Positions 6,993-60,166 are shown, numbered from the stretch's first letter. The stretch: 64,000 bases of DNA from Pseudomonadota bacterium (GCA_021324155.1 JAJPJQ010000037.1:36427-100426), one strand, 5' to 3'. Notes: generated by a model not told the origin, from the sequence alone. Made by a program: numbers and translations.

Positions 6993-8630
6993 GTGGTTTC
7001 CGCTTACCTTCGGCCTTCTTATCGAAAGTCGGTCCTCATTTCCCTCATTCTGATCGGCGCCGCGTTGCGCCTGTGGCAGTACGCGGCGAACGCCTCGCTG
7101 TGGCTCGACGAGATCGCGGTCGCCCAAAATATTCTGGAGCGGCCTCTCGGCGAGCTGCTCACGGCTCCGCTCGCGTATGCGCAGGTTGCGCCGAAAGGCT
7201 TTTTGCTGGCCGAGAAAGCTGCCGTCGCGCTTTTCGGCCCGAGCGAATACGCGCTGCGGCTGTTTCCCCTGCTTTGTTCTCTGGGGGCGCTGTTGGCGTT
7301 CAGGCGCGTCGCCGAACGCGCGCTCACGGGGTTCGCAGCGACTGTCGCCGTCGCGTTATTCGCCGCGGCCATACCGTTAATATTTTATGCCGCGCAAACG
7401 AAGCAGTACTCGACCGACGTGCTCATCGCCGTGCTCCTGCTCTGGCTTGCGCTCGACCTCGACGCCGGCGCCGTTTTGTCCGCGCCGCGAGCCGTAGGCG
7501 CTGCCCTGGCCGGCGCGGTGGCGCCGTGGTTCTCGCATTCCGCTGTTTTTGTGCTCGCCGGTATGGGTATATCTCTCGCGGCGCAGAGCCGCCGGCTCGA
7601 TGTCCGCTCGCTGCGGCGTCTCTATATCGTCGTGGCCGTCTGGACCGTCTCGGCTCTGTGCGCCGTCGGTATCGAGTTATCGACGGCGTCGCCGCAAACG
7701 CGCGAATACATGCAGTGGTTCTGGGCGCCCGCCATGCTGCCGTCCGATGCGCTGCACATGCTCTGGCCTTTGCTCCGATTGAGGGACTTGCTCGGCCAGA
7801 GAGGTCTCGGCGCCCTCGGATACCCCGCCTCGATCTTATATATGTCGCTCGCCGTCTTCGGTCTCGCGCTGCTTTCTTGCCGCAGGCTCCGCGTCGCGCT
7901 GTTCCTCATATTACCCACGGCTCTAACCGTCGCCGCTTCGGCCGTGCGCCAATATCCCTTCGCCGATCGTTTGATACTTTTTCTCGTGCCGGGTTTTTTA
8001 CTCGCGATCGCCGAAGCTATCGAATGGACCCGCGCGCGCGCGGCAAAATTCTCTCCTGTCGCTGCCGTCGCGATGCTGGTCGCACTTGCGGGTCCCGCGC
8101 TCTACGCGCTCGCGACGAAGCCGCCGGTCTACCGACTCCAGGATATGAAGCCTGTGCTCGCTTACCTGCAGGAGCGGCGCCGTCCCAGCGACGCGGTGTA
8201 CGTGCATTATCGTGGCGCCCCGTCGATTCTTTTTTACGGCGCGCGCTATGGCCTGCGCCCGAGCGACTACACGATCGGCGGCTGCTATCTCGGCGATACG
8301 CGGCGCTACCTCGAAGACATCGACAAGTTTCGAGGCTCGCCGCGTCTGTGGATCATTGCCGCGGACGTCGCGCCGATTCGTTCCCAGCCCCAAGAAATGG
8401 TCCGTTACTTGGACGCGATCGGCGTACGCAGCGATTTCTTTCTCGTGCCAACTCGCACCCCGAGCGGCTATGCCATCACTCCCGCCGCCGTCTATCTATA
8501 CGATCTGAGCGACCCCCAGCGCCTTGCGAAAGCCGACGCAAGCTCGTTCCCTGTTATAGGCAAAGATCACGGGCCTTCATGGACCCGCTGCCACGAGGGA
8601 CCGATCACCGTCGATCCTGCGCGCCGCTAG
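6993..8630 (+). CDS. GT-C fold membrane glycosyltransferase-like protein (PMT/ArnT-like) with C-terminal soluble domain
   Basis: More than 10 TM helices. Acidic DE motif (SLWLDEIAVAQN) in the first extracytoplasmic loop right after TM1, as in GT39/GT83 enzymes. About 200-aa C-terminal non-membrane domain. Confidence 0.45.
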   Translation: MVSAYLRPSYRKSVLISLILIGAALRLWQYAANASLWLDEIAVAQNILERPLGELLTAPLAYAQVAPKGFLLAEKAAVALFGPSEYALRLFPLLCSLGALLAFRRVAERALTGFAATVAVALFAAAIPLIFYAAQTKQYSTDVLIAVLLLWLALDLDAGAVLSAPRAVGAALAGAVAPWFSHSAVFVLAGMGISLAAQSRRLDVRSLRRLYIVVAVWTVSALCAVGIELSTASPQTREYMQWFWAPAMLPSDALHMLWPLLRLRDLLGQRGLGALGYPASILYMSLAVFGLALLSCRRLRVALFLILPTALTVAASAVRQYPFADRLILFLVPGFLLAIAEAIEWTRARAAKFSPVAAVAMLVALAGPALYALATKPPVYRLQDMKPVLAYLQERRRPSDAVYVHYRGAPSILFYGARYGLRPSDYTIGGCYLGDTRRYLEDIDKFRGSPRLWIIAADVAPIRSQPQEMVRYLDAIGVRSDFFLVPTRTPSGYAITPAAVYLYDLSDPQRLAKADASSFPVIGKDHGPSWTRCHEGPITVDPARR

Positions 8631-16304: not shown

Positions 16305-17053
16305 TGACGCTCGAGGAATTCGCCGATCGTTTAAGAAAAACCCGCGAGATAGTTTTTTTCACCGGCGCCGGCATCAGCACGGAGTCCGGCGTGCCGGACT
16401 TCCGCAGCCCCGGCGGTATCTGGACCAAATACCAACCGGTCTATTACGACGAATTCGTCTCGAGCGAGGCGGCTCGCGCGCGCTATTGGAAAATGAAGAA
16501 CGAGACGCACGAGCTCTATAAGGACGTGCGGCCCAACGTCGGCCATTACGCGATCGCGGCGTTCGAGAAACGCGAGCGGCTACTCGGCCTCATTACGCAG
16601 AACGTCGACGGACTGCACGGCCTCGCCGGCGTGTCGCCGGGAAAGATGGTCGAGCTGCACGGCACGGACCGCAAGGTCACCTGCCTCGATTGCGGCAAAG
16701 AATTCGAGCCGGAGCCGATCTACGCCCGGCTGAAGGACGGCGCGATCCCGGGTCCATGCGCGTGCGGAGGACTGCTCAAGCCGGCGACGATCTCGTTCGG
16801 GCAAGCGATGCCGCAGGACGCGATGCGCCGCGCGGCGCAATGGAGCGAGACAGCGGAGATTTTCGTCGTCGTCGGCTCTTCACTCGCGGTGCAGCCCGCG
16901 GCGTCGTTTCCCGTCGTCGCGAAGCGCAGCGGCGCGCTGCTCGCGATTGTCAACCGCGAGGCCACGCCTCTCGACGATTTAGCCGATTACAACTACCGCG
17001 GCGCAATCGGCGAATTCTTCACGACGCTGAATCCGCTGCTCGCCGACGGATAA
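16304..17053 (+). CDS. cobB: NAD-dependent protein deacylase, Sir2 family
   Basis: GAGIS(T)ESGVPDFR motif, QNVDGLH, and Zn-binding CxxC...CxC (CLDCG...CACGG). Start overlaps the FKBP stop (TAATG). Confidence 0.8.
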   Translation: MTLEEFADRLRKTREIVFFTGAGISTESGVPDFRSPGGIWTKYQPVYYDEFVSSEAARARYWKMKNETHELYKDVRPNVGHYAIAAFEKRERLLGLITQNVDGLHGLAGVSPGKMVELHGTDRKVTCLDCGKEFEPEPIYARLKDGAIPGPCACGGLLKPATISFGQAMPQDAMRRAAQWSETAEIFVVVGSSLAVQPAASFPVVAKRSGALLAIVNREATPLDDLADYNYRGAIGEFFTTLNPLLADG

Positions 17054-17061
17054 AGCGCTCG

Positions 17062-17343
17062 TCACGGACGCGGATAGACGTCGGCACCGTCCGGCGCTTT
17101 GTTTTCGACACCGTGCCATTATTGGCAAATGAATAATTTCCCGCATTGTCCACGCGGCCGCCGCGCATGCTCGGCTTGTTGCCGGTGATCCTGCTGTTGG
17201 TCAAGCGTAGACGTGCCGCCGTCATTTTCGACCCCACCGCCATCTCTCGCGGAATTTCCAGAAATAGCTCTACCCGGATTGATGTAGAGGCCGGCGCGGT
17301 AGTTGTAAATACCGCCGCCGGAACCCTGCGCTTTGTTTCTCAA
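17062..17343 (-). pseudogene. Frameshifted C-terminal remnant of a sixth CSLREA/beta-helix paralog
   Basis: Minus-strand frames give ...GGGIYNYRAGLYINPGRAISGNSARDGGGVENDGG..., ...SRITGNKPSMRGGRVDNAGNYSFANNGTVSKTK and, in a third frame, NKAPDGADVYPRP*. These match the C-termini of the intact paralogs (NKAPNGADVYP*). At least two frameshifts, and no N-terminal part. Confidence 0.55.
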
Positions 17344-17389
17344 GCCTAAAGCCTCGACTTCTCTTCCAGCATTATAATAAACTTGTCGC

Positions 17390-18652
17390 GTGCCTCGGCG
17401 ATTTTACTACGGGTACATCATCCTCTTTCTCTGCTTCGTCAATACGATGTTCGCGCGCGGCGCTGTCGCGTCGTTCAGCGTCTTCTATGTCGCGCTCCTA
17501 GAAGACTTTCACTGGTCGCATGCCGTCGGTGCGAGCGTCGTTTCGTTGAACTCGCTCGTCTATGCTTCCGTGTCGCCAGGGGTCGGATACCTCTTCGACC
17601 GACTCGGACCGCGGGCGCTGATGCCGCTCGCCGGACTATTGATGGGGCTCGGCTTCGTTTTATCCGGCTTCGGTCATTCGCTATGGGAGCTGTATCTCTT
17701 CTACGGGATTCTCGCAGCCGTCGGTCAGGGCGGCCTGGGCTTCGTCACGCAAAGCGCGCTGCTGTCCGCGTGGTTCGTGCGCCGCCGCGCGACCGCGATC
17801 GGTCTCGCGAGCGCGGGACAGGGCTTCGGCATCATCGCGCTCGTGCCGCTCGCGCAATTTTGGATCGCGCGCGCCGGCTGGCGCACGGCGTTCATGCTCG
17901 TCGGCGCTTTCATCCTCCTCGCGGTGATTCCGCTGAACGCGATCTTTCAGCGGCGCACGCCGGCGCTCGTCGGGCAACTCCCCGACGGCGCGGGCGCTGC
18001 CGTCGACGATCCGAACTACCGCGGCGGCGCCGTTGCGGGGCCCGAGTGGACGCTCGGCGCGGCACTTCGCTCCGCGCCTTTCTGGACAATCGCCTGCGGA
18101 CATCTCGCGCTCGGCACGGCCCTGTTCATCATCTATACCCATTTCGTCGCGCATCTCGTCGAGCAGGGTTTTGAGAAGTTGACAGCCGCGTTCCTGTTCG
18201 GAATCGTCGGATTCATGCGAGTCGTCGGGACGTTCGTCTGGGGCTATGCCTCGGACGTCCTCGGAAGAGCGCCGGCTTACGGTCTCTCGATTCTCGTCGC
18301 GGCGGCGGGCATTCTCGCGATCGCGGCGATCGGCGCGGGAATGCCTCCCTGGCTGGCATACGCCGCCGCGGTCGTCTACGGCCTCGGCCACAGCGCCGGC
18401 AATCCGACCTATGGCGCGGTGATCGGCGATATTTTCGCCGGCAAGAACATCGGCACGATCTTCGGTTTTCTGGAAATCACTTTCGGCATCGGCATGGCGA
18501 TTGGCTCGTGGGCGGGCGGCGCGATCTTCGACGTGAGCGGCTCGTATCGCGCGGCGTTCATGCTGAGCCTCGCGTGCTTCGTTCTATCCTTCGTTGCGAT
18601 TCAGGCGACCGCGGGCTGGCGGCGTAAGAATGCGCCGGCGATCGGATCTTGA
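17390..18652 (+). CDS. MFS transporter (OFA-like)
   Basis: 12 predicted TM helices; MFS motifs (LFDRLGPRA, GLGFVLSG). Confidence 0.75.
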   Translation: MPRRFYYGYIILFLCFVNTMFARGAVASFSVFYVALLEDFHWSHAVGASVVSLNSLVYASVSPGVGYLFDRLGPRALMPLAGLLMGLGFVLSGFGHSLWELYLFYGILAAVGQGGLGFVTQSALLSAWFVRRRATAIGLASAGQGFGIIALVPLAQFWIARAGWRTAFMLVGAFILLAVIPLNAIFQRRTPALVGQLPDGAGAAVDDPNYRGGAVAGPEWTLGAALRSAPFWTIACGHLALGTALFIIYTHFVAHLVEQGFEKLTAAFLFGIVGFMRVVGTFVWGYASDVLGRAPAYGLSILVAAAGILAIAAIGAGMPPWLAYAAAVVYGLGHSAGNPTYGAVIGDIFAGKNIGTIFGFLEITFGIGMAIGSWAGGAIFDVSGSYRAAFMLSLACFVLSFVAIQATAGWRRKNAPAIGS

Positions 18653-19978
18653 TTAGGGGTATACGTCGGCGCCGTTCGGCGCCTTGTTCTTCGCGATCGT
18701 GCTGTTGGACGGAACGAAGGTTGCGCCGGCGTTGTTGAAGACGCCGCCGCCGCGGTCCGCAGCTTTATTGCCGCTGACGACGCTGTCGGCAAGCTTGAAA
18801 TAGCCGTGGATATTCGCGACTCCGCCCGCGTAAACGCCGGCGCCGTTCTTCGTCAGCATGGTGTCGTAGATGTAAAGCCGGCCGATCGCCGCTCCGCTGC
18901 CGTAGTTTTCGACGCCGCCGCCGTACATCGCGCTGTTGCCGGTAATGACGCTGTTGAAAATTTTCGCCGTGCCGTAAACGTTGTCGATACCGGCGGCGGC
19001 GCGCGACGCACGATTCTTGGCGATGGTGCTGTGCTCGATGCGCAGATAACCGTCGTAATTGGCGATTGCCCCGCCTTCGCTCGACGCGGTATTGCCCGAG
19101 AGCGTGCTATCCACGATACGAATGTACTGGTAGCTGAATAGCGCGCCGCCGACCTCCGCTTCATTCTTACTGATGACGCTATCGCGAATCAGGAGAGCGG
19201 CCGCCGGGCCGCGGCTGTAGATGGCGCCGCCGTTAGCTGCGGTGTTGCCGGAGATCGTCGATGAATTGACGGCGAGGCTGCCGTAATTAAGAATCGCGCC
19301 GCCTGTGGTCGCCGAGCCGCCGCTCAGCGTCACATCTTCCAGCGTCAGATCCCCCGACACCGCGACCGCGAGCAACCGGAACGCCGGCGCTTTCTTCGAC
19401 CGAATAATCTTCGCGTGATTGCCGGCGATGGTGATAGCGCTCGCGACGATCGGGAGACCCGTCGCGCCGGCGTAGTCGGTGTAAGCCTGCGCCAGCTGCT
19501 GCGTTCCCTTGGGCAAAACGATGATGTCAGCGCCGCTGCCGGCGGCGCAGTCGGAGTACGTCGCCGCATCGTCGTTAGCGTTGACGATCGCCTCGGCCAG
19601 CGAGCAATGGCCGTCGCCATCGACGACCGCCGGGATCTTTGCGGTAACGGTAATGGTCGCCGCTTCGCCGGTTTGCGCAATCGCGCACAGCAGTGCCGCG
19701 GCCGCGATTGAGCGCGAGAGCTTGCGCAGCACATGGCGGCGCCCCTGCCGCGGCAACAAATCATCGATGTGCCGCGCGCGAACGAGCCGCCGTTCGAGCG
19801 ATCGGCGCATGCCGTGCGGCAATCGCCGAAGGACGGGATACCAGAACGCAAAGCGAGGCAGCAACTCGCCGCGGCGGACGGTCAACGCCGCGGCGAGCTC
19901 AGGCGCGTCGCTGAATTGCGCGAGTCCGGAGTTCCACGCGGCGACGATTCTCTCGTCCCGCTTGAGTCCCGCTACCAC
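18653..19978 (-). CDS. CSLREA-domain / right-handed parallel beta-helix repeat surface protein, paralog P1, with conserved N-terminal cytoplasmic-type domain and internal signal anchor
   Basis: CSLAEAIVNAN (CSLREA-type motif) follows the hydrophobic segment IAAAALLCAIAQTGEAAT. Pectate-lyase-like repeats (GGAI.N.G...S.ISGN.A). C-terminus ...GADVYP*. Confidence 0.7.
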   Translation of the reverse strand: MVAGLKRDERIVAAWNSGLAQFSDAPELAAALTVRRGELLPRFAFWYPVLRRLPHGMRRSLERRLVRARHIDDLLPRQGRRHVLRKLSRSIAAAALLCAIAQTGEAATITVTAKIPAVVDGDGHCSLAEAIVNANDDAATYSDCAAGSGADIIVLPKGTQQLAQAYTDYAGATGLPIVASAITIAGNHAKIIRSKKAPAFRLLAVAVSGDLTLEDVTLSGGSATTGGAILNYGSLAVNSSTISGNTAANGGAIYSRGPAAALLIRDSVISKNEAEVGGALFSYQYIRIVDSTLSGNTASSEGGAIANYDGYLRIEHSTIAKNRASRAAAGIDNVYGTAKIFNSVITGNSAMYGGGVENYGSGAAIGRLYIYDTMLTKNGAGVYAGGVANIHGYFKLADSVVSGNKAADRGGGVFNNAGATFVPSNSTIAKNKAPNGADVYP

Positions 19979-20045
19979 ACCGCACCTCCGCTGGGCGCCT
20001 TTGACGTGCGGTGCAAACGCCGCGACAAAGACACGCAGGCGCTTA

Positions 20046-21374
20046 TCATGAGCCGTATACGTCCGCTCCGGTTGGCGCTTTATTGCGTGTCACGACACCG
20101 CCGTCGGTGAAAACGCCCGTCCCTGACGTATCGACACCGCCGCCGTACGTCGTAGCGGTGTTTTTCGTAATCGTCCCGCTCGTCAAAGCGAAGGAGCCCC
20201 GATTCGAGACGCCGCCGCCGGCATCGCTGCGATTTCCGGAGATGGTGCTGCCGGTAACCGTGAGGCTATCGCCGTCGCCGTTGTAAATACCGCCGCCTCT
20301 GCCCGACGCGCTGTTTTTCGTGATCGTCGTGTCGGAAATCACGGTCACGCCGTAGACGGCGATGCCGCCGCCCTTCGACGCGCTGTTACCGGTAATGACG
20401 CTGCCGGTGATCGTGTCGTGCGCCGTCGTAGAAAGCAGACCGCCGCCGAACGACGGATTGCCGTGGTACGGCACGGCTTTATTTTTCGACAGCGTGCTAT
20501 TCGTCATGGTGAACGTGCCGCTGTAATTCGTCACGCCGCCGCCGTAGTTCGCGACGTTATTTGTGATCACGCTGTCGCTCACGCTAAGACTCCCGTAAAG
20601 GATGAAAACGGCCCCTCCTTCGAACGCCACATTCCCGGAGATGGTACTGTGGATGATCGTGACACTGCCGTAATCGTCAATCGCGCCGCCGCGCAGCCGT
20701 CCGTTGGCGTCGCCGCCGCTGAGCGTGACATCTTGAAGTGTAAGATCGCCGGATGCGCTGACCGCCATCAGGCGGAACGGCTCAGCTTTTTTGCTGCGGA
20801 CGATTTTCGCGCCGTTTCCCTGGATTGTGATCTTCGTATTGATCACCGGGAGGCCGGTCTTGCCCAAGTCGTCGTTGTCGGCGGCCGTGATCGTGATCGT
20901 TCCTTTGGGCAGAACGATCGTATCGTCGCCGGTTCCCGCCTCGCAGTCGCCGAACGTAGCGCCGCCATTGTTGGCGTTGACGATCGCCTCCGCGAGCGAG
21001 CATTTGCCGTCGCCGTCGTTGATTTCCGCCGGCGTCTTCGGCGTCACGTTGATCGTCGCCGCCTGACCGGCTCCCTGCGTCAGCGCGAGCAGCAGCGCCG
21101 CGCCGGCGAGAGAGGTCGCGAGCCGCATCTGCCACGCTGGAAGAGCGGCGCGCCGGCAGCGGCGTACGAGCTTTCGCTCGAACGCGCGCCGCGCACCGCG
21201 CGGCAGCGCGCGCAAGCGCGCGTAATAATCGGCGAAGCGCGGCAAAAGCTTTGCGCCTTCCTGTGCGACGATGTCGTTGAATCCCGGCACATTCGCCAGC
21301 TCTCCCACTTGAGAATCCCAAGCGGCGACGATCGTATCGTCCAATGAAACGGCATATGCCTGAAAATAGTTCAT
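20046..21374 (-). CDS. CSLREA-domain / parallel beta-helix repeat protein, paralog P2
   Basis: Same architecture: N-domain (AAWDS...LPRFADYYARLRALPRGARRAFERKL), h-region MRLATSLAGAALLLALTQGAGQAAT, CSLAEAIVNAN, beta-helix repeats, C-terminus ...GADVYGS*. Confidence 0.7.
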   Translation of the reverse strand: MNYFQAYAVSLDDTIVAAWDSQVGELANVPGFNDIVAQEGAKLLPRFADYYARLRALPRGARRAFERKLVRRCRRAALPAWQMRLATSLAGAALLLALTQGAGQAATINVTPKTPAEINDGDGKCSLAEAIVNANNGGATFGDCEAGTGDDTIVLPKGTITITAADNDDLGKTGLPVINTKITIQGNGAKIVRSKKAEPFRLMAVSASGDLTLQDVTLSGGDANGRLRGGAIDDYGSVTIIHSTISGNVAFEGGAVFILYGSLSVSDSVITNNVANYGGGVTNYSGTFTMTNSTLSKNKAVPYHGNPSFGGGLLSTTAHDTITGSVITGNSASKGGGIAVYGVTVISDTTITKNSASGRGGGIYNGDGDSLTVTGSTISGNRSDAGGGVSNRGSFALTSGTITKNTATTYGGGVDTSGTGVFTDGGVVTRNKAPTGADVYGS

Positions 21375-21652
21375 AAATGATGATCCTCCAGGCCCAGAAT
21401 CCTTTGGATGAGGATTTTCGGCCCAGCGTCGATAATGCCGTTGGGATCGGTTTGCGACAATCAGGTCGTTACCTGCTTGGCGCCGAAGTTTTTACGTAAA
21501 ACAGAGGGATTAGAAGGGCGGGTTATGCGATTTATATCGGGTGAGATACTGATTTGATTTTTAACGAAAAATTAACGGCCGGCAGCTGAACCAGGAATTC
21601 TCGTTCTTATCGGCTACGGCGAAGCGAAGCGCGCAGAGAAAGACGGTAGCAA

Positions 21653-23200
21653 TCACGGGTAAACGTCGGCATGCGCCGCCGCGGTATTGCCGCTGATAGT
21701 GCTGTTATTAATCTGCAACGTAGCATCAGGCGGTGGCAGATTATAAATACCGCCGGCGACGAACAGAGCCGTGTTTCCGGTTACCGAGCTGCCGTTTAGA
21801 TAAATGTAGCTCGAATTATGGATACCGCCGCCCTTGCCGCCGTAATTGGACTGGGAGTAGGCAACATACTTGCCTTCGGCCGTGTTGGTTCCGTTAATCG
21901 TGCTGCTGTTGATCGTAAGACCGCCGTGATTGTTAATCCCGCCGCCGTAGCCGCCGACGTAATATGTTTTGTTGTTGTACACACTTGGTGAGACGGTTGC
22001 ATGATTACCCGAAACGGTGCTGCTGGTAATTACGGCGTCGGCCTGATCATCATTGAACAACCCGCCGCCGTAATTCGCGTTGCTATTCGAGATCGTAATG
22101 CTGGTGGCGATTAGGGTATGGGCGTTATGCAAACTGCCGCCTTTAAATGCGCTGTTTCCCGTTAAGGTGCTGCTCCCGATCGAAAGCCGTCCGTAAGGAA
22201 CGCCGATCGCGATGCCGCCGCCGTTCCTCGCCGCGGTGTTGGTCGAGATCGTGCTGTTCGTGATCGTCGCACTGTAAGCGTTGTCGATGCCGCCGCCGTC
22301 ATAATTCGCATGATTGCCGGTAATCGTGCTGTTGTTCGTGACCGTGAGATTGCCGATATTGTAGATGCCGCCGCCGTAATCAGCGGTGCTGTTGCTGACA
22401 TTACTGTGATTGAGGCTCAGATTCCCAGAGTTGAAGATGGCGCCGCCGATCGGCGCCGTCCCCGAGATCACACTATCGACAATGGAGACGCTGCCGGCAT
22501 TGTAGATCGCGCCGCCGTTATAGACAGAAGATGATCCCTGTACCGTGACGTTCTGCAACGTCAGGCTGCCCCCATCGTTGACAAAAAAGATACTATTACC
22601 CGTGATCCTGCCGCCTGTGCCCGGAGGTGGCGGAGGTTGGCCTTTTTTCGGCTTTTTGGCCGCAACTCCTTGAATTGTGATATTTCCGCTGATGGGCGGC
22701 AAATAGCTTGCGCTTATACTTGCGTTTTTCGGCAGCGCGATGATCGTGGGACCAGGCGAGGCTTGGCAGCCACTGTAACTATAAGATTTCTTCGTGACCG
22801 GGTATCCCGTAGTGTTCGCGTATTCGGCAGCATAGATCGCGTTATACAGCGAGCACTTTGTGCTGAGCTTGATGGGCTTCGGACCCTTAGCTTCTGAAAT
22901 CGTTTGTCCGAGCGCGATCAACAACGCCGCGCCGGCAATCGAATACGCGAGTCTGCGCCGCCAGTCGGCGGGAATTGCCGCGTCTTCAGAGCGCGCGAGG
23001 TTGCGTTGCAGCGCGCGGCGCACGGTCCGCGGCAGCGCGCGGATTTCGTTGTATGAGGTGGTGAATCGCTGGAACAACTCCTGGCCCTGCTCTGCCAGGA
23101 TTTGCTCGATCCAGGGTGTTTTGATACGGCGGAGCTCTGAATCCCAAGCGGTGACGACCGACTCGTCCGCAGGAAGCGGACACGGAGAGAGATAATTCAT
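21653..23200 (-). CDS. Parallel beta-helix repeat protein, divergent paralog P3 (degenerate CSL motif, Pro/Lys-rich linker)
   Basis: N-domain conserved (VTAWDSE...FQRFTTSYNEIRALPRTVRRALQRNL); TM-like LAYSIAGAALLIALGQ; KCSLYNAIYAAEYAN. Long N-x-T/S-rich beta-helix repeats; C-terminus ...AHADVYP*. Confidence 0.6.
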   Translation of the reverse strand: MNYLSPCPLPADESVVTAWDSELRRIKTPWIEQILAEQGQELFQRFTTSYNEIRALPRTVRRALQRNLARSEDAAIPADWRRRLAYSIAGAALLIALGQTISEAKGPKPIKLSTKCSLYNAIYAAEYANTTGYPVTKKSYSYSGCQASPGPTIIALPKNASISASYLPPISGNITIQGVAAKKPKKGQPPPPPGTGGRITGNSIFFVNDGGSLTLQNVTVQGSSSVYNGGAIYNAGSVSIVDSVISGTAPIGGAIFNSGNLSLNHSNVSNSTADYGGGIYNIGNLTVTNNSTITGNHANYDGGGIDNAYSATITNSTISTNTAARNGGGIAIGVPYGRLSIGSSTLTGNSAFKGGSLHNAHTLIATSITISNSNANYGGGLFNDDQADAVITSSTVSGNHATVSPSVYNNKTYYVGGYGGGINNHGGLTINSSTINGTNTAEGKYVAYSQSNYGGKGGGIHNSSYIYLNGSSVTGNTALFVAGGIYNLPPPDATLQINNSTISGNTAAAHADVYP

Positions 23201-23212
23201 CCGACCTGTTAC

Positions 23213-25561
23213 TTACTGCCTTGCGCTCGCGCCGCGCAAAGCATCGGCAACGCGTTGGATTACGCCGGACCAGTTGCCGGCCTCGCTTTGCCGGAAAAGA
23301 CTCATCGTCGGATACCACGGAGTGGTCTCTCCGGTCAATCCCCAACGCCAGTCGGCGGCGTCGCTGAGCAGCGTCCATGCAGGCTTTCCCAGCGCTCCGG
23401 CCATGTGGGCTACCGAAGTATCGACGGCGATGACGAGGTCGAGCTGGTCGATGAGGATCGCGAGGTCGCCGAAGTCGCCGAGCAAAGGATCGAGATCGTG
23501 GACCTTTACGTCCGACGGCAGCTCGCTCAAGTCTTTGGCGCGCTCGCCCTTTTGCAGGCTGAAAAAATCCGCACCTGATACGCGCAAGATGGGAAGAAAG
23601 TCTTTCAAAGCGCACGAGCGCTGGCGGTCGGTGCGGTTAATCGGGCTGCCCGCCCACGCGATGCCGATCTTTGGGCGCGGCGAAGGGGCCAGGACGAGCG
23701 CCGGATTTTCTTTCCGGCGGCGGAGCGCCGCAGCGTCGAGGTAAGGAACCGCCGAAGGGATCGTCTCCGGCGTCGTGCCGAAAACGTACGGCAGGCTCAA
23801 CATCGGCAGATGCGTATCGAAGTCGCCGACTTTGATTTCGCCGGGCTCGCGAATATGCGCGACGCCGGGGATCGTGGCGAACACCGCGCTCAGATCGGGG
23901 CGGCAGGCGAGGACGACTCTCTTGCAGCGCTCGGCCGCCATTGGCAGATAGCGCGCGAACTGGATCGCGTCGCCCGCGCCCTGCTCGTTATAAACGAGCA
24001 GAGTCTTTTCCGGCGCCGGCTTTCCGTCCCACGGTGGATGCGGCGAGCGCACCGCCGGGAACTGCGGCAGCTTTCGGCGCGACTCGTATTCGGCGAGGCC
24101 GCGCGTATAGTCGCCAACCTGAAGCAGGCACATGCCGAGGTTCATACGCGCTTGCGGATAATTGGGCTGGAGTTCGAGGGCGCGCTCGTACGCGGCGATC
24201 GCCTTTTGCGGCTCGCGCCGGCGCGCGAAAGCGAAGCCGAGGCTATTGTAAGCCTCGGCGCGCTCGGGCTCCGCCGCGACAACCTGCTCAAGCTCGGTGA
24301 CGGCGTCGGCATACTTGCCGGCGTCGCCCAGCGCGACACCGAGGTTGAAGCGCGCGTTGGGAAATTCCGGCTGGAGCGCGACACATTGCCGGTAGGCCGC
24401 GACCGCCTCTTCGATCTTGCCTTTCGAATACAGCTCGTTGCCGCGCTGAAAGTGAAACCCCGGCGAGCGCTCCAGCTCTTCGGGGCTCGGCAGATGCACG
24501 TCCGCGAGCGCCTCGTCGGGCAGAACGTAGGATTGCGCGAGCCGCGGATCGGTCCATTCGAGCATCTCCGGAAACCGGATGCCCTGAAGCGCCTGCACGG
24601 CGAAGATCTCCTGCACGCCGGCCTCGAAGCGGAGAAAGCCAACCGTCTGGCCGTTCTCGATATTGACGATCCAAACGCCGCACGTGCGCTCTTTCAGCCG
24701 CTGCACCAGCGGAATGCCGCTGAAAACCGCGCTCTCGCGCACCTGCGAGAGACCGATGAAGGCGAGCGGGCCGATGAAGTCGATGCCACGCGTGAAGCCC
24801 GGCACCTGCGCCACGGCGCGCCACGTTCGCGATTCGAGATCAATCTCCGCCAGCGTCCCCTCGCCCGATTCGAGCACCCAGAGCTTGTCGCGATACCAGC
24901 GCGGTGAGTGCGGCATGGAAAGGCCGCGCAGCAGAATCTCGTTCGTCTCGATGTCCATCAAAAGGCCGCCGCGGGCTTTATTCGCGCGCCACCCGCCGGC
25001 CGTGTCGGTCTCGCCGAGAGCGGTGACATACTTCGGCCGGCCGTCCACCATCGCGAGGCCGTTCAAGTGACAGCGGTCCTCCGGCGCGAGCGCGCTCACG
25101 AACGGCGGGCGCCAGCGTGGATGAAAGCTGTGATCGACATCGAGCGTACAGAGGCAGCAGAAACGCGTGTTCACGACCCAGAGCTCGTTCTTCGCGTCCC
25201 ACGCGAGCTCATGGATGTCGATGTCCCCCGTGACGTGAATGCGCCGCGGCAGATAACAGGCGTCGTGCTTTCCCGGCGGGTCCAGCTTTTGCGCGACCGC
25301 CGGCATATTGCGGTATTCCCAGACCGTATTCGCGCCGCCGATCGTGAGGCGGTTGTGGTCGGCGGCGATCCCCATCGGCTTGGCGAACGTACGGAAGTGC
25401 GTGTTGAGGGCGCCGCCGTCGTTGCGCACGACGATCGTCTTTCCCGCCTGGTAGGTGGAAACGACGAGACTGATCTGCAGCCGCTCGAAAAGCGCTGGAA
25501 GATTCGCCGTATGGACGCTGCGGAGGGGTGCGTCCTCGGTGGTCTCTGGTGCTTGAGCCAT
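23213..25561 (-). CDS. Multidomain glycosyltransferase: N-terminal about 330-aa conserved domain (tentatively TIGR03032-like) + TPR repeats + C-terminal glycosyltransferase family 9 (heptosyltransferase-like) domain
   Basis: Central TPR repeats (AYRQCVALQP...NLGVALGD...AYNSLGFAF...). C-terminal GT9 signature (IGIAWAGSP...DLVIAVDTSVAHMAGALGKPAWTLL). 12 bp from the P3 start and 53 bp from the P4 stop, so embedded in the array. Confidence 0.7.
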   Translation of the reverse strand: MAQAPETTEDAPLRSVHTANLPALFERLQISLVVSTYQAGKTIVVRNDGGALNTHFRTFAKPMGIAADHNRLTIGGANTVWEYRNMPAVAQKLDPPGKHDACYLPRRIHVTGDIDIHELAWDAKNELWVVNTRFCCLCTLDVDHSFHPRWRPPFVSALAPEDRCHLNGLAMVDGRPKYVTALGETDTAGGWRANKARGGLLMDIETNEILLRGLSMPHSPRWYRDKLWVLESGEGTLAEIDLESRTWRAVAQVPGFTRGIDFIGPLAFIGLSQVRESAVFSGIPLVQRLKERTCGVWIVNIENGQTVGFLRFEAGVQEIFAVQALQGIRFPEMLEWTDPRLAQSYVLPDEALADVHLPSPEELERSPGFHFQRGNELYSKGKIEEAVAAYRQCVALQPEFPNARFNLGVALGDAGKYADAVTELEQVVAAEPERAEAYNSLGFAFARRREPQKAIAAYERALELQPNYPQARMNLGMCLLQVGDYTRGLAEYESRRKLPQFPAVRSPHPPWDGKPAPEKTLLVYNEQGAGDAIQFARYLPMAAERCKRVVLACRPDLSAVFATIPGVAHIREPGEIKVGDFDTHLPMLSLPYVFGTTPETIPSAVPYLDAAALRRRKENPALVLAPSPRPKIGIAWAGSPINRTDRQRSCALKDFLPILRVSGADFFSLQKGERAKDLSELPSDVKVHDLDPLLGDFGDLAILIDQLDLVIAVDTSVAHMAGALGKPAWTLLSDAADWRWGLTGETTPWYPTMSLFRQSEAGNWSGVIQRVADALRGASARQ

Positions 25562-25614
25562 AGCGCTATAAATTGCGCTATCGAAGCCCCGCTGTCAACG
25601 TATTTGCTGCGGGA

Positions 25615-27183
25615 TCAGAATTCGAACGAGCCGACGTCGCAGCTCGTCCCCTGCGGGCGCGTAACGCCCCGCTGATCTTTCGGCGCGCAATCCGCGTCGG
25701 CCGGCGACGCGTCGATCGCCGGGCTGCCGGACACCAGCGCATGCGTTTTGGTCGGGCCGCCATTATAGGCGAGCGGCATCAAGATGCTGGCGATGCCTAC
25801 GTTCGGGACAATGTCGGTCGGACCGGGTGAAAATCCTTTCACCCCGTCGCCGCCGCCGGCGCCGAACACATTGTAGTTATTTCGATATACGTTGCCGGAG
25901 AAGCGGTCGATTTCATCCGCGAAAGAAGCGGAATTGCCGGAGATCAAGCTGCGCGTCAAGGTGAGATCGTTGACCACGGTGAAGATGCCGCCGCCGTCGC
26001 GCGCGGAGTTCTTGGAGATCGTGCTGTTCGAGATCGTCATCGTCGAGCGATTGTAGATGCCGCCGCCGGTGAGGGCCGTATTGCCGGAGATCGTGCTGTT
26101 GATGATGTCGGTCGTACCCGAGCGGTCGAAGATGCCGCCGCCGTAACCGAAAAATCCCGTGTCGTTGCTCGACAGCGTGCTGTAGGCAACGAGCACGCCG
26201 CTGTCGCGATGATGCAGCCCCGCGCCGTCGCGGCCGGAGAAATTTTTCGTGACCGTGCTGTATTCGATATCCAGGCTGCCCGCGCGATCGTAGACGCCGC
26301 CGCCATCGATGAAAGCGCGATTGCTTTTGATCGTGCTGTAGTTCACCGTGACTGCGGCGTTGTAATTGTATAAGCCGCCGCCGTAGTCGGCGAAATTCCC
26401 GGAAACGACGCTGTTGTCGACCGTCGCTTCCGCGGCGGAGCCGTTGAAGATGCCGCCGCCCAAATGCGCCCGCCCGTTCGTCACCGTCGCGTCGGTAAGC
26501 GTGAGCGTGCCGTAGTTGAAGATAGCGCCGCCGAACTTCTCCGATCCGCCGCTGACCGTCACGTTGTCGAGCGTGAGATCGCCGGTGCTCTTCACGGCGA
26601 AGAGGCGAAAGCCGAACTTGCCGACGATCTTTGCGCCGTTGCCGGAGATCGTGATGTCGCTGGTGATCGCGGGCAGGCCGTTTTTACCGTAATATTTGCT
26701 AAAGCTCTTCGTCACCTTGATCGTGCCGAGCGCCGGCAGATCGATAACATCCGCGCCCGAGCCGGCGCTGCAGTCGGCATGCGTGGCGGCGTCGTTGTTC
26801 GCGTTGACGATCGCCTCGATAAGGGTGCAGAGCCCGTCGCCGTCTTTGACTTTGGTAGTAAGCGTATTGACGGTAATCGTCGCGGCGGACGCGGCGCTCT
26901 GCGCGAGCGCGATCAGGAGAGCCGCACCGGCGGCGGAAGTTGCGAGCTTCGCTTTCCACGACGGCGCGGAGCTCGCCAGCCGCCGCAGCAGCGCGCGCCG
27001 GGCACCGCGCGGCAGGCGTTGAAGGTTGCCGTAGGCCGCGGCAAAGCGCGCGAACAGCTCTCCGCCGGGTACGGAAAGCGCATCAGCGACCGCGGGCTCG
27101 TCAATAAATCGGCTGATTTCAGAATCCCACGCGGCGAGAACCGCTTCGTCGGCGGAAAAGGCGTAAGGACGGAGGTAATCCAT
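25615..27183 (-). CDS. CSLREA / choice-of-anchor-Q-type parallel beta-helix repeat protein, paralog P4
   Basis: Start at MDYLRP (GAGGAAG RBS). N-domain (AAWDSEI...FARFAAAYGNLQRLPRGARRALLRRL); TM-like KLATSAAGAALLIALAQSAASAAT; CTLIEAIVNAN. C-terminal LAYNGGPTKTHAL.SGSPAIDA...CDVGSFEF*. Confidence 0.7.
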   Translation of the reverse strand: MDYLRPYAFSADEAVLAAWDSEISRFIDEPAVADALSVPGGELFARFAAAYGNLQRLPRGARRALLRRLASSAPSWKAKLATSAAGAALLIALAQSAASAATITVNTLTTKVKDGDGLCTLIEAIVNANNDAATHADCSAGSGADVIDLPALGTIKVTKSFSKYYGKNGLPAITSDITISGNGAKIVGKFGFRLFAVKSTGDLTLDNVTVSGGSEKFGGAIFNYGTLTLTDATVTNGRAHLGGGIFNGSAAEATVDNSVVSGNFADYGGGLYNYNAAVTVNYSTIKSNRAFIDGGGVYDRAGSLDIEYSTVTKNFSGRDGAGLHHRDSGVLVAYSTLSSNDTGFFGYGGGIFDRSGTTDIINSTISGNTALTGGGIYNRSTMTISNSTISKNSARDGGGIFTVVNDLTLTRSLISGNSASFADEIDRFSGNVYRNNYNVFGAGGGDGVKGFSPGPTDIVPNVGIASILMPLAYNGGPTKTHALVSGSPAIDASPADADCAPKDQRGVTRPQGTSCDVGSFEF

Positions 27184-27308
27184 GGTGCTTCCTCGCATTC
27201 CGGGCCTTGCCGCGGGGATCAAGTAGTGTTCGAGACCAGGTAAAGACCCTAAATCGGTAAATCGCGGCAAAAATTTAGACGCGGGGGAAGAAAAAAAGTT
27301 TACAAGGT

Positions 27309-28943
27309 TTATTTCTCGAAGGCGCCGATGTCGCACGCAGCGCCCTGCGGGCGTGCGATTCCGCGCTGATCCTCGGAAGGACAATCAGGGCCTACAGGCG
27401 CTGCGTCGATCGCCGGACTGCCGGGCACAAGCGCGTGTGTGGGCGTCGGTCCGCCGTTGTCGGCGAGGGGGCCGAGAATTTTCGTGATGGTCGTTCCCGT
27501 CGGAGGGATAATGTCGGACGCTCCAGGTGTGAAGCCGATCACCCCGGCATTACCGTTAGTGCCGAACAAGTTGTGATTGTCGACGGTGATCCCAGTGCCA
27601 TTATGCTTAACTTCCGCAGCTGAGCCCTTGTTGCCTGATACGAGCGTCCGCTTAATGGTCATATCGCCGCGATTATAGACCCCGCCGGCGATCTTTCCCT
27701 TATTGCCCGTAATCGTGCTGTTACTTAGAGTTAAAGACGCGCCATAAATACCTCCCGCATATTTCGCGCTGTTACCTGAGATCGTGCTGTTTTCGATAAC
27801 ACCCGGGGCAGCTCCACTTGAGATCCCGCCGCCGCCAGGCCCTGCTTTGTTCGCTATCACTGTACTGTTCTCGACCGTCAGAGTGCAATTGAAGCTCTGG
27901 ATGCCACCACCATCAAAATGAGCCGAGTTCGATGAAATAATACTGTTACTTATGTTAGTGGTGCAGTACGGTTCGTGATAATTGAAAGCGTTAGCTAATA
28001 CGCCGCCGCCGTGTTCAGCAGCGATGTTTTTCGATATCGTTGTGTTATCGACCTCAAGCAGGCCGTTGTTATACAAAGCGCCGCGATTTGCTCGATTTCC
28101 GCTCACCGAACTGTGTTGAACTGACGCTGTACCGTCCTCATGATTGAAAATCGCCGAACCGAGTCTGGCTAGATTCCCCGAAAGCACGCTGTTTTCGATC
28201 GTGACATCGCCGCGGTTATAGATGCCTCCACCATAATTGGCTATGTTGATATTGATTGTGCTGTCTTCAATCGTCACGGCGCCATAATTAAGAATCGCTC
28301 CGCCTTTAACTTGAGCGCCGCCGCTCAGAGTAATGTGATCTAAGGTCAGATCACCCGAGGTCGTGACGGTAATAAGACGAATCGGAGTCTTGCTCTTCTT
28401 CACGGTAATTCGCGCGCCGTTGCCCTGAATGATGATTTGACTCGTTATCACCGGCAGGCGCGAGCCATATACCGTATCGTAAATCCCGGTCACGGCGTGA
28501 ACGCTTGCGGCAGGAAGCGCTATGGTATCTGTTCCGCTCCCCGGCAAACAGTCCGCATGTGTCGCCGCGTCGTTGTTCGCATTGATGATCGCCTCCACGA
28601 GCGAGCAGAGACCGTCACCGGCGATCTTCGGAATGTTCGTGTTGACGGTGATCGTCGCCGCCGGAGCCGCTTGCGCGAGCGCGAGTAGCAGCGCCGCGCC
28701 CGCGATGGACGCGGCGAGCCTTTGTGTGGCGGCGGCAGAAACATTGAGGCCGCATGAGCACGCGAGCTTTCGCTGCAGCGCACGGCGCGCGCCGCGCGGC
28801 AGGGATCTAATTTTGGCGTACGCGGCGGCGAAGCGCGGAAAAATCTCTTGCTCGCCGCCCAACGGCGGCGCATGCCGGACGGATTCCCACGCTGCGAGAA
28901 GATTGTCGTCTACCGGGAAAGAGAGCGGTTGAGAATAATACAC
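27309..28943 (-). CDS. CSLREA / choice-of-anchor-Q-type parallel beta-helix repeat protein, paralog P5 (first gene of the array, GTG start)
   Basis: N-domain (AAWES...FPRFAAAYAKIRSLPRGARRALQRKL); TM-like LAASIAGAALLLALAQAAPAAT; CSLVEAIINAN. C-terminal LADNGGPTPTHALVPGSPAIDAAP...CDIGAFEK*. GGAGG RBS 7 nt upstream of GTG. Confidence 0.7.
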   Translation of the reverse strand: MYYSQPLSFPVDDNLLAAWESVRHAPPLGGEQEIFPRFAAAYAKIRSLPRGARRALQRKLACSCGLNVSAAATQRLAASIAGAALLLALAQAAPAATITVNTNIPKIAGDGLCSLVEAIINANNDAATHADCLPGSGTDTIALPAASVHAVTGIYDTVYGSRLPVITSQIIIQGNGARITVKKSKTPIRLITVTTSGDLTLDHITLSGGAQVKGGAILNYGAVTIEDSTININIANYGGGIYNRGDVTIENSVLSGNLARLGSAIFNHEDGTASVQHSSVSGNRANRGALYNNGLLEVDNTTISKNIAAEHGGGVLANAFNYHEPYCTTNISNSIISSNSAHFDGGGIQSFNCTLTVENSTVIANKAGPGGGGISSGAAPGVIENSTISGNSAKYAGGIYGASLTLSNSTITGNKGKIAGGVYNRGDMTIKRTLVSGNKGSAAEVKHNGTGITVDNHNLFGTNGNAGVIGFTPGASDIIPPTGTTITKILGPLADNGGPTPTHALVPGSPAIDAAPVGPDCPSEDQRGIARPQGAACDIGAFEK

Positions 28944-28980
28944 GCGCAGCCTCCACGGTTTAGAGTCGCCAAATCGACCC

Positions 28981-29010
28981 TATATAGCAAAGGCTAACGT
29001 GAAGAGTCAA
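28981..29010 (-). promoter_or_regulatory. Putative sigma70-like promoter of the beta-helix array (minus strand: TTGACT-N18-TATATA)
   Basis: Plus-strand agtcaa at 29005-29010 and tatata at 28981-28986 read as TTGACT-N18-TATATA on the minus strand. This sits about 38 nt upstream of the P5 GTG. Confidence 0.35.
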
Positions 29011-49329: not shown

Positions 49330-50575
49330 TCAGCTCTGAACGACTTCGACGCCGGCGGCGCCGACCTTCAGCCACCCGGCGGCGGTCAGGAGTAGTTTCT
49401 TGAACTCCTCCTGCTTAGCGTTCGGCAGATCCAGCACGCGTAATAGATCAATCGTGCGCAGAATCACGATATGGTCCTGGCCCGCCTTGGCGCACTCGCG
49501 GCTCTCGACACGCTGGTCCTTTTTCGCGAGACTCTCTGCGGCCGTGAACGTGTTGACGATTAAAACCGACGGATAATCGTCGGGCAGCTCCGACTCCTCG
49601 CGGCGCAGTCGAAGCTTGGTCAAATGCTCGCGCTTGACGTTTTCCGCCGTGCTCTTGATCTCGCCGATGGCGACGCGCTTTCCGCCCTGCGCGAGATAAA
49701 AATGCGGCCCGTCGCCGTTGCGCGAGGCGTCGATGTTGAGCTCGAGGTATTTTTCGAACCACGCGGGCAGGCGGTGTAAAGTCGCCGAATTTTTTCTTAA
49801 TTTTCAGGAGCTGTGCGTTGAGCGCCTCCAGCTCCTTGACGATCGGCTGCTCCTCGGCGAAATGAAACTCCTCGACGTATGCCGGAATGTCGGTGGTTTT
49901 GGCTCTGACGTAATTCAAGCAGCCGTCCGCCAGGTCGGCGAAAAAGTCCAGCTCGAGCGCCTGGGGCTGCGCCGGGACGACGATCAGCATGCCGCGGCCT
50001 TGCTTTCGCGCCACCGCCGCCGCGCGCCCGTCTTTTCTCAGACGGGCGACGACGTCGATCTCGCCGGCGCCGTTCTGCGGCAGGTTGAATCCGACCGAAG
50101 TGAAGCCGTGATTTTTTAGGAAATGGTCGAAGTACGGATTGACCTTGGTGAACTCGTTGCTCAGCTCCGTGGGATTGAAGCCGATCGAAAAGTCCTCCGC
50201 CAGCACCTTGTAGCCGAGGGATTTCTGCGCCGCGCTGCCGACCACCTGCGTGTCGCGCACCGCGCCGTTCTCGATGAAGCAGAAGCTGACGCCCTGCTCC
50301 AATGCCATACGCACGTTCGAGAGCATCTGCAGATTGCTCGCTTCATAGGTTGCCGAGCCCGCCGTCTGGGCCAGCATCGGATTCGCGGTGGCGATCACCA
50401 AATCAGGCAGCTGCGCCAGGCCCTTGAGCTGCAGATCGGCCTCCAGGGGCAGCACCGAAAACCGCTTGCCCTTATGCTCGCGGTCGAGCGCGTCGGCCTT
50501 TACCCCGAATCTTTCGACGCCATACAGGCAGACTTGCGGCTGCATACGGCCGCAACGGAGCAAGTATTGTGCCAC
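49330..50575 (-). pseudogene. Hypothetical about 400-aa protein split by a frameshift in an A6/T6 homopolymer (49790-49795)
   Basis: Upstream frame reads ...EALNAQLLKIKKK, then becomes an Arg-rich out-of-frame tail. The adjacent frame continues plausibly (...NSATLHRLPAWFEKYLELNIDASRNGDGPHFYLAQGGKRVAIGEIKSTAENVKREH...). Deleting one A fuses the frames. Confidence 0.5.
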
Positions 50576-60156: not shown

Positions 60157-60166
60157 GAAAGTCTCT

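Follow-up and report, generated by a model that had tools for sequence, protein, structure and literature searches.

What brings the gene of a large composite enzyme into the middle of a tandem array of beta-helix protein genes? This question is raised by a 64,000-nucleotide stretch of DNA from a Pseudomonadota bacterium (GCA_021324155.1, JAJPJQ010000037.1:36427-100426; the whole stretch is hereafter called the window), in which five paralogous genes, P1 to P5, enclose the gene of a 782-aa protein. Domain analysis revealed that this protein joins a DUF4915 beta-propeller to tetratricopeptide repeats (TPRs) and to a C-terminal domain resembling glycosyltransferase family 9 (GT9), and that every paralog opens with a conserved N-terminal segment, which we call the N-module. 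Genes for DUF4915 and for N-module proteins lie next to one another in two phyla, and it is this pair, not the combination of GT9 and beta-helix stressed in a first-pass annotation of the window, that is conserved across them; the outline of that annotation, surface proteins with a dedicated enzyme, is retained. We propose, with a probability of roughly 45%, that the beta-helix pre-proteins are modified in the cytoplasm, probably by glycosylation, before export.

An open reading frame (ORF) listing of the region 18653-28943 gave six successive genes, all on the minus strand, which agrees with the five tandem paralogs and embedded 782-aa gene described at first pass. The gene span given there was correct, and the end assigned to it (29010) lies 67 bp beyond the start of P5. 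Gene names follow that annotation, the order of transcription being P5, P4, the 782-aa gene, P3, P2, P1:

27309-28943, minus strand: P5, 544 aa, first gene of the array
25615-27183, minus strand: P4, 522 aa, architecture as in P5
23213-25561, minus strand: DUF4915-TPR-GT9-like gene, 782 aa, three domains
21653-23200, minus strand: P3, 515 aa, 12 bp downstream of the 782-aa gene
20046-21374, minus strand: P2, 442 aa, with a shorter beta-helix
18653-19978, minus strand: P1, 441 aa, GTG start, last gene of the array, convergent with a major facilitator superfamily (MFS) transporter gene
17022-17403, minus strand: relic of a sixth paralog (3' part, frameshifted), in the intergenic region of SIR2 and MFS

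Side-by-side recurrence of DUF4915 and the N-module

The N-module comprises 75-90 aa with a net positive charge and follows the consensus M-N-Y-F-x-P-Y…D-E-x-I-x-A-A-W-D-S…L-F-P-R-F-A-x-x-Y-x-x-L-R-x-L-P-R-G-x-R-R-A-L-Q-R-x-L-A, from which P1 diverges at the N-terminal end; profile scans found no model for it in Pfam or NCBIfam. The six-bladed propeller, DUF4915/TIGR03032, is the largest and best-scoring domain of the 782-aa protein (aa 16-337, positions 24551-25516), reaching 438.2 bits against a cut-off of 35 for PF16261 (DUF4915; profile positions 2-316 of 316) and 419.3 bits against 251.5 for TIGR03032.

From the enzyme side, 42 loci were retrieved and scanned with hidden Markov models (HMMs) of the N-module and the CSLREA-like region, built from the paralogs, and of the three enzyme domains. 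The fusion protein has more than 4,000 relatives, and the best 120, which are 65-91% identical over their full length, derive from metagenome-assembled genomes (MAGs) labelled Binatia, 'Deltaproteobacteria', Gammaproteobacteria and Chromatiales and bear only the name 'TIGR03032 family protein'. Neighbourhood scans found the co-occurrence of enzyme and beta-helix genes in many assemblies, in line with the first-pass annotation. At the Binatia-type loci (L003-L009, L020 and L043), the fusion gene is flanked on the same strand by one to five N-module genes, located upstream and/or downstream and often 10-16 bp away; the 782-aa gene of the window is ~95% identical to its counterpart in a Candidatus Binatia MAG (L005). 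On a related contig, seven paralogs occupy the same syntenic site, the enzyme gene not being visible before the contig ends. Because the Binatia cassette loci represent one orthologous site with common flanks (alcohol dehydrogenase, DUF427 and molybdenum-cofactor dehydrogenase genes, and MFS, SIR2 and FKBP genes), we count them as a single observation. Three loci with the cassette and the Binatia flanks (L006, L008 and L020; enzyme 76-84% identical) come from MAGs labelled Verrucomicrobiia or Syntrophobacteraceae; these labels are probably wrong, or the contigs mis-binned.

The pair was also observed away from this site. Three Chloroflexota (Anaerolineales) loci, L028-L030, which are not syntenic with the window, encode a stand-alone DUF4915 protein of ~395 aa that is 70-76% identical to the window domain and has no TPR and no glycosyltransferase. 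Within 75-130 bp of it begins a run of one to three genes for beta-helix proteins, the majority of them with an N-module of the pattern …AAWQQQL…NPFLFQLLLKQ…LAYFYAQLASLPRRNRRALQRALATSLIGAAMLLAL…ASITV…CTLDEAITNAN. Aligned with those of Binatia, the Chloroflexota N-modules require small terminal gaps only, with L-P and R-R invariant and AAW and Y nearly so. Because the Chloroflexota keep DUF4915 alone beside N-module proteins, the conserved partner is DUF4915 and not GT9, the role that the first-pass annotation had given to the glycosyltransferase. At a further locus, L001 (Binatia GCA_016197285), the fusion gene lies at another chromosomal site, 2 kb from a degraded N-module/RTX paralog on the opposite strand.

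Two side observations concern the Chloroflexota loci. DUF4915 retains 70-76% identity between Chloroflexota and Binatia while the adjoining N-modules are far more diverged, a difference in sequence conservation that points to extreme constraint on the propeller gene or to its lateral transfer. Directly upstream of the stand-alone DUF4915 gene, two of the loci carry a 159-aa ORF (L028:9276-9755 and L030:9330-9794) with a PqqD domain (PF05402, 29.1 bits), a canonical twin-arginine motif MTRRDFLRAGAVGAAV and a Cys-rich tail; the PqqD fold is the leader-recognition fold of ribosomally synthesized and post-translationally modified peptides (RiPPs). This ORF is 75% conserved between L028 and L030; neither L029 nor any of the Binatia loci has it.

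Searching in the reverse direction, from the N-module, we found it in all but one of the 120 listed relatives of P5, the exception having a truncated N-terminus. These relatives carry variable C-terminal additions (He_PIG, Flg_new_2, FG-GAP and choice-of-anchor Q), and P5 itself is 100% identical to database protein P0121, encoded on a 529,848-bp JGI contig. A metagenome scan seeded by the N-module alone, for which close sequences served as the seed and which is thus biased toward Binatia-type sequences, yielded 34 contigs, and the enzyme gene or a fragment of it adjoins the N-module gene in 16 of them. Among the 18 contigs without an enzyme gene, just one locus (L071/L072) extends more than 2.5 kb on both sides. 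The N-module profile matched only fragments of 53-128 aa in a set of 5.8 billion proteins, which carry no taxonomic information. One partner gene, with tagged proteins partly adjacent to it and partly dispersed, is the pattern of dedicated sorting or processing systems.

The 782-aa protein and the fusion partners of its propeller

The propeller is followed by four TPRs (eight helices; aa 360-497, positions 24071-24484) and by a compact GT-B domain of GT9 fold (aa 510-782, positions 23216-24034). Both had been recognised at first pass; the title of that annotation did not name the propeller, the largest domain. The Pfam GT9 model PF01075 gave a marginal match (23.1 bits against 22) confined to aa 697-741 and to profile positions 174-218 of 247, and many orthologs share a precomputed PF01075 match. 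The isolated GT-B domain was modelled with a predicted local distance difference test score (pLDDT) of 89, and a Foldseek search of the PDB with this model returned GT9 structures at all of ranks 1-26 and 28-31 (E 3e-8 to 3e-5; template modelling score on the query, TMq, 0.54-0.65), among them WaaF (1psw), a Veillonella GT9 (3tov), TibC (4rap/4rb4) and WaaC (2gt1/2h1h/6dfe). For the whole-chain fold, the best matches were SPINDLY and OGT, protein glycosyltransferases that combine TPRs with a GT-B domain.

Within the GT-B domain, a G-D531 pair in the first beta-alpha loop accompanies a D714-T-S-V-A-H719 motif, and D531, D714 and H719 are conserved in 36 homologs. An hhalign comparison placed D714-T-S-x-x-H on D261-T-G-L-S-H of WaaC with a probability of 72%, the N-lobe lying outside the alignment, and we treat this placement as a lead; Asp13 (G-D loop) and Asp261 (D-T-G-x-x-H) of WaaC are what we take to be its catalytic or sugar-binding residues. 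Judged by modelled fold and conserved residues, the enzyme looks active and protein-directed. The GT9-like character assigned to the C-terminal domain at first pass is supported by the fold, marginally by PF01075 and by a conserved D-T-S-x-x-H motif, with the amendment that the domain forms a distinct family and does not belong to the bacterial autotransporter heptosyltransferases (BAHTs).

Closer family assignments were tried and rejected. Scores for the lipopolysaccharide (LPS) heptosyltransferase equivalogs were 25.7 against 185.3 bits (TIGR02193), 19.6 against 170.2 (TIGR02201) and 18 against 467 (RfaQ), and no LPS genes were found around the 782-aa gene. BAHT membership is contradicted by the lack of the barrel, thumb and iron finger of that family, by the propeller and TPRs that precede the catalytic domain and by the presence of three Cys residues with no CxxC, and GT41 by the lack of a PF13844 match, the resemblance being architectural only. 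Since the 782-aa protein has no signal peptide and no hydrophobic N-terminus, it should be cytoplasmic, like the glycosyltransferases Aah and TibC. The fold neighbours of its DUF4915 domain are of the YWTD, NHL, lactonase and arylsulfotransferase-like kind, and in this family the His, Cys, Asp, Arg and Glu positions that never vary number in the dozens, with sequences from different phyla 65-90% identical.

When the propeller by itself (24527-25561) served as query, an exhaustive HMMER search returned 4,130 cluster representatives, the best 150 of which (P0287-P0436) were classed by local searches anchored on Pfam scans. Among these 150, 61 have no recognised partner (~40% stand alone), 44 carry Sulfotransfer_3 (17 of them together with Asp/Asn beta-hydroxylase) and 8 carry the hydroxylase without Sulfotransfer_3; TPR + GT9-like domains are found in 17 (3 with an added GT2), TPR + GT41 in about 9 (e.g., P0341) and GNAT in 3. 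Because of these varied partners, we regard the propeller as a recurrent module for different group-transfer chemistries. Several of the families modify proteins, but several of them also act on lipids or glycans, so that the spectrum is suggestive and not decisive.

The neighbourhoods of fusions with a sulfotransferase (P0296), GT2 (P0291) and GT41 (P0341) revealed no general substrate: the neighbours are housekeeping genes, or a Big_5/FG-GAP protein without the N-module. At the P0341 locus (L049; DUF4915+TPR+GT41), a 642-aa Big_5/FG-GAP protein of surface type (L049:9999-11927), likewise without the N-module, is encoded 500 bp downstream. Large FG-GAP/cadherin proteins or proteins with type IX secretion system (T9SS) tails adjoin DUF4915-only genes at L041 and L040.

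The beta-helix paralogs and their setting

P1-P5 align end to end at 38-50% identity and are therefore true paralogs. Their common order is N-module, hydrophobic h-region, AxA then ATITV, a Cys motif (G-x-C-S-L-x-E-A-I-x-N-A-N…D-C-x-A-G-S-G; divergent in P3, TKCSLYNAIYAA) and beta-helix repeats of the pattern G-G-A-I…N-S-T-I-S-G-N-x-A. The beta-helix character claimed for the array at first pass was borne out by Pfam matches in P5 (Beta_helix, PF13229, 37.5 bits against 25.9), P1 and P2 (Chlam_PMP, PF02415, 29.3 and 25.1 bits against 20.6). P4, at 17.9 bits, falls below cut-off, and P3 has no match; both are tied to the group because they are homologous to the other paralogs over their full length. 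NCBI annotates homologs as 'right-handed parallel beta-helix repeat-containing protein'. The CSLREA label, also given at first pass, describes a likeness at the level of the motif and not family membership, with TIGR04214 (CSLREA_Nterm, cut-off 25) yielding 13.2 bits for P2, 7.9 bits for P4 and no match for the other three.

A choice-of-anchor Q domain (NF041518, cut-off 25) closes P5 (89.1 bits; aa 490-543, positions 27315-27476) and P4 (77.3 bits; aa 468-522, positions 25618-25782). This domain normally precedes one of several C-terminal sorting signals; here the chain ends with it (…CDIGAFEK, stop), and no C-terminal anchor follows. P1-P3 have no choice-of-anchor Q and end directly after the last repeat. 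Pfam and NCBIfam scans of the paralogs revealed no autotransporter domain and no carbohydrate-active family, and neither a C-terminal sorting signal nor GlyGly-CTERM or PEP-CTERM was found in them. Rhombotarget A (TIGR04212) was rejected at 19-42 bits against 295, there being no C-terminal transmembrane segment and no GlyGly tail.

In P5, the N-module occupies aa 1 to ~75 and the h-region aa ~76-97, which closes with AxA. The h-regions are short and A/L/G-rich (…S-I-A-G-A-A-L-L-L-A-L-A-Q…), with a mean Kyte-Doolittle value of 1.4-1.8 over 19 residues, and are followed by small residues at -3 and -1 ahead of ATITV. Read from the sequence, this arrangement would be no less compatible with a signal peptide that is cleaved off and has an exceptionally long N-region than with a signal anchor, and the first-pass description of the proteins as membrane-anchored is not established.

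An R-R pair within LPRxxRRALQR is invariant across N-modules. The distance from this pair to the h-region is 6-9 residues in the Chloroflexota and 15-35 residues in the window paralogs. An internal duplication of ALQRxLAxS separates R-R from the h-region in Binatia N-modules, including P0177 and P0192; the Chloroflexota N-modules do not have this duplication and look closer to a twin-arginine translocation (Tat) signal, for which the reference is S/T-R-R-x-F-L-K directly before a weakly hydrophobic h-region, then AxA.

Window genes were compared with their positional orthologs in L005, the closest genome. Identity amounts to 95% for the enzyme and 86-97% for the flanking genes, compared with 90% for P4, 84% for P2, 83% for P1, 61% for P3 and 53% for P5. 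P3 is a fast-evolving member, its N-module being 87% conserved against 47-64% for the passenger; as a test of constraint, the comparison of N-module and passenger gave a mixed result, since only P3 is clearly more conserved in the N-module. Paralog copy number varies from 1 to 7 across related contigs. The sequence divergence of P5 and P3 suggests diversifying selection or passenger replacement. Collectively, the array behaves like a diversifying surface-protein family beside a strongly constrained enzyme.

The intergenic gaps measure 125 bp (P5-P4), 53 bp (P4 to enzyme gene), 12 bp (enzyme gene to P3), 278 bp (P3-P2) and 67 bp (P2-P1), the two around the enzyme gene being exactly those first annotated. 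Scans of 18-30 kb gave 4 promoters against 3.2±1.8 in shuffles and 20 terminators against 13.8±3.7, neither above expectation. Because these scans did no better than shuffled sequence, co-transcription is suggested by spacing only. The close setting of the genes on one strand, with the enzyme gene 53 bp from P4 and 12 bp from P3, also speaks for the proposed pre-export modification. P4 starts at MDYLRPY, as does database protein P0173 (522 aa), and not at a TTG further upstream; a 589-aa ORF was rejected for it because that ORF overlaps P5 and P0173 shares the MDYLRPY start.

Genes encoding a zinc alcohol dehydrogenase, a DUF427 protein and a molybdopterin dehydrogenase occupy the array's strand upstream of it, with tRNA-Asn beyond them; downstream, the convergent MFS transporter gene is followed by SIR2 and FKBP genes. 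The relic of a sixth paralog consists of two overlapping frames that match consecutive profile positions, 369-409 and 406-448, and a related contig has two intact paralogs in its place.

Elsewhere in the window, a low-GC islet (57204-63912, minus strand; GC content 0.55 against 0.62 elsewhere) is probably a horizontally acquired defence islet. It holds type I restriction-modification genes for HsdR-like (61714-63912), HsdS (60167-61717) and HsdM (58663-60156) proteins and a gene for a GmrSD_N+HNH nuclease (57204-58595). The 604-aa product of 47295-49109 (minus strand) ends in a block of TPRs (aa ~407-596), and its N-terminal 400 aa gave no Pfam match. The ORFs 6993-8630 (plus strand) and 49448-50575 (minus strand) likewise had no match in Pfam.

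Possible roles of the pair and comparison with known systems

In the reading that we prefer, the paralogs would be made as pre-proteins whose N-module stays on the cytoplasmic side, the leader region of ~100 residues serving as a very long signal peptide or, alternatively, as a signal anchor of the N-in type. Docking on the N-module, or its processing, would fall to the propeller and possibly to the TPRs as well, and the GT9-type domain would transfer a sugar to the Ser/Thr-rich beta-helix repeats before Sec export; by analogy with Aah/TibC, this sugar could be heptose from ADP-heptose. Where DUF4915 stands alone or is joined to other transferases, docking or processing would be kept and the chemistry would differ. 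Gene order, domain content, fold assignments, conserved motifs and the recurrence of the DUF4915/N-module gene pair in two phyla are observed; that the partners touch, which acceptor and sugar are used, and what becomes of the N-module are the parts of this mechanism that we infer.

Several observations weigh against pre-export glycosylation. The GT9 assignment is remote at the sequence level, with a Pfam match of 45 residues; sequence searches of the PDB with the propeller and the GT-B end domains returned nothing usable, and the GT-B domain found no usable match among PDB chains either as a single sequence or as a 14-sequence profile. As modelled, the DUF4915 fold does not tell a binding domain from an enzyme. 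Gene scans revealed no nucleotide-sugar or heptose-biosynthesis genes in the window. Measured against 2,000 shuffles, the mature parts show an excess of N-x-S/T sequons in P3 (19 against 9.5±2.6) and in no other paralog, and because of this lack of enrichment outside P3 there is no support for N-glycosylation of the HMW1C type. Moreover, lipids and glycans too are substrates of GT9 enzymes, LpxO-type hydroxylases and sulfotransferases, so that the fusion partners do not prove a protein acceptor.

The distribution of the genes adds to these points. The Binatia linkage could be plain inheritance, only the Chloroflexota loci and L001 being independent, and N-module genes also occur far from any DUF4915 gene (L044, L045/L046 and L071; the assembly of L045 is that of L009, which carries the fusion). 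About 17 cyanobacterial loci (Okeania, Dapis and others) encode the full fusion, 50-58% identical to the window protein; none of them has a gene for an N-module or beta-helix protein at a distance of 10 kb or less. The first-pass annotation had set its proposal against an LPS-core heptosyltransferase conserved elsewhere without beta-helix neighbours; the cyanobacterial loci partly provide such a setting, and the LPS-core identity was not found (25.7 against 185 bits). Near one cyanobacterial DUF4915-only gene (L034), a divergent RTX beta-helix protein is encoded; more distant DUF4915-only genes, from Bacteroidota and other groups, stand beside unrelated genes (PriA, aconitase) or beside genes for other surface proteins. 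A search of the literature library at hand found no paper mentioning DUF4915 or TIGR03032.

A broader reading, which we consider rather doubtful, makes DUF4915 the core of a cytoplasmic, pre-export, leader-guided tailoring system for large secreted proteins, with interchangeable chemistries: glycosyltransferases of GT9-like or GT41 type joined through TPRs, sulfotransferases, Asp/Asn hydroxylases and acetyltransferases. The propeller would then recognise or chemically process the N-module ahead of the signal peptide, a logic that would resemble that of RiPP leaders; a gene resembling PqqD and the RiPP recognition element (RRE) adjoins DUF4915 in two Chloroflexota loci. It seems unlikely that the enzyme instead decorates a non-protein envelope component (LPS or lipid A core, glycolipid or exopolysaccharide), the beta-helix proteins not being substrates but envelope, glycan-binding or glycan-processing members of the same surface-remodelling locus. 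GT9 enzymes are classically LPS-core heptosyltransferases, WaaF and WaaC are the nearest folds, and the sulfotransferase, Asp/Asn hydroxylase, GT2 and GNAT partners all serve glycan or lipid decoration, the lipid-A hydroxylase LpxO belonging to the Asp/Asn-hydroxylase family; however, protein acceptors are indicated by the TPRs and by P0341, the variant with GT41, the whole chain is closest in fold to SPINDLY (SPY) and OGT, and the LPS heptosyltransferase equivalogs score far below cut-off. Right-handed beta-helices are common among polysaccharide lyases and epimerases, which we count in favour of envelope decoration, whereas the paralogs show PMP-like repeats, choice-of-anchor Q and no carbohydrate-active match. 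Such a role would also suit the cyanobacterial fusions without beta-helix neighbours and the unenriched sequons, but it leaves unexplained why the linkage tracks the N-terminal module of the neighbours, and the DUF4915/N-module pair recurs in Chloroflexota, which are generally considered to be without LPS.

We are similarly sceptical that there is no functional link at all and that a surface family has expanded in tandem around a conserved housekeeping-like gene, through inherited synteny and chance. The shared flanks of all Binatia cassette loci, the paralog number of 1-7 with a relic copy, the very different evolutionary regimes of the P5/P3 orthologs (53-61%) and the enzyme (95%), and the far wider spread of the enzyme family than of the N-module family all accord with this explanation. 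It is opposed by the non-syntenic recurrence at L001 and at three Chloroflexota loci, where another DUF4915 architecture meets the same N-module, by enzyme-paralog gaps of 10-16 bp in several arrangements, upstream and downstream, and by the presence of the enzyme gene in 16 of the ~18 informative contigs seeded by the N-module. A role of DUF4915 as a cytoplasmic chaperone or proof-reading factor for an unusual, possibly Tat-type, export signal, holding the N-module until the beta-helix is ready for export, with TPR-GT9 as an add-on, appears very improbable. The invariant R-R 6-9 residues before a weakly hydrophobic A/G-rich h-region in Chloroflexota, the AxA cleavage motifs and the stand-alone DUF4915 there would agree with it; yet the distance of 15-35 residues in Binatia proteins, including all five of the window, is unlike a Tat signal, and the invariant His, Cys, Asp, Arg and Glu residues with 65-90% identity across phyla are more enzyme-like.

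No function has been assigned to the large family DUF4915/TIGR03032, and the tagged neighbours at this locus provide its first concrete, testable candidate substrate, with the GT9-fold domain as candidate chemistry. If pre-export glycosylation is correct, cytoplasmic adhesin glycosylation would no longer be confined to the few pathogens in which it is known (AIDA-I/TibA, HMW1) but would reach soil lineages that are abundant and uncultured (Binatia, Chloroflexota), secreted proteins would have a new extended pre-sequence, and the recurrent fusions of DUF4915 with sulfotransferase, hydroxylase, GT41 and GNAT domains would be explained. In the literature searched, the sole mention of CSLREA proteins is as putative substrates of type II secretion in Acinetobacter. 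The kind of cassette, a cytoplasmic glycosyltransferase beside beta-helix surface proteins, is known; the N-module and its DUF4915 partner are undescribed components, and a system that modifies surface proteins before export by their means is probably undescribed.

[quoted passage not shown] The window resembles this arrangement in that a GT9-like GT-B enzyme, predicted to be cytoplasmic, adjoins repetitive beta-helix proteins, and its C-terminal domain has TibC as one of its best matches in structure. It differs in the DUF4915 propeller and TPRs of the enzyme, which are putative substrate recognition modules, and in neighbours that have a long N-terminal module and no autotransporter beta-barrel. 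With GT41 enzymes (OGT, SPINDLY, XcOGT/TtOGT), the protein shares TPRs ahead of a GT-B domain, the best whole-chain folds and a DUF4915+TPR+GT41 sister (P0341); unlike them, it has no PF13844, a catalytic domain of ~270 aa closest to GT9 and an additional N-terminal propeller. HMW1C likewise modifies a beta-helix adhesin of its own operon, HMW1, in the cytoplasm. WaaC, WaaF and WaaQ provide the nearest solved folds (1psw, 2gt1, 2h1h and 6dfe), the D-T/S-G/S-x-x-H motif and the N-lobe G-D loop, whereas the 782-aa protein scores 18-26 bits against cut-offs of 170-467, is fused to TPRs and DUF4915, and has no LPS genes around it.

The pairing of one enzyme gene with tagged proteins recalls exosortase/PEP-CTERM and rhombosortase/GlyGly-CTERM, in which a terminal module is common to paralogs that are clustered or dispersed around one partner gene. 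The passenger resembles rhombotarget A and CSLREA proteins; choice-of-anchor Q closes two of the paralogs. Unlike in these sorting pairs, the N-module is N-terminal and predicted to face the cytoplasm, not a C-terminal transmembrane anchor, and the place of the membrane protease or transpeptidase is taken by a soluble propeller. The extended signal peptide region (ESPR) of autotransporters and two-partner secretion proteins, ~25 residues with a motif of its own on large passengers, offers a further parallel, as a conserved N-terminal extension before a Sec-type h-region and AxA on beta-helix passengers. In contrast to the ESPR, to which it bears no sequence relationship, the N-module spans 75-90 residues and has a genetic link to DUF4915.

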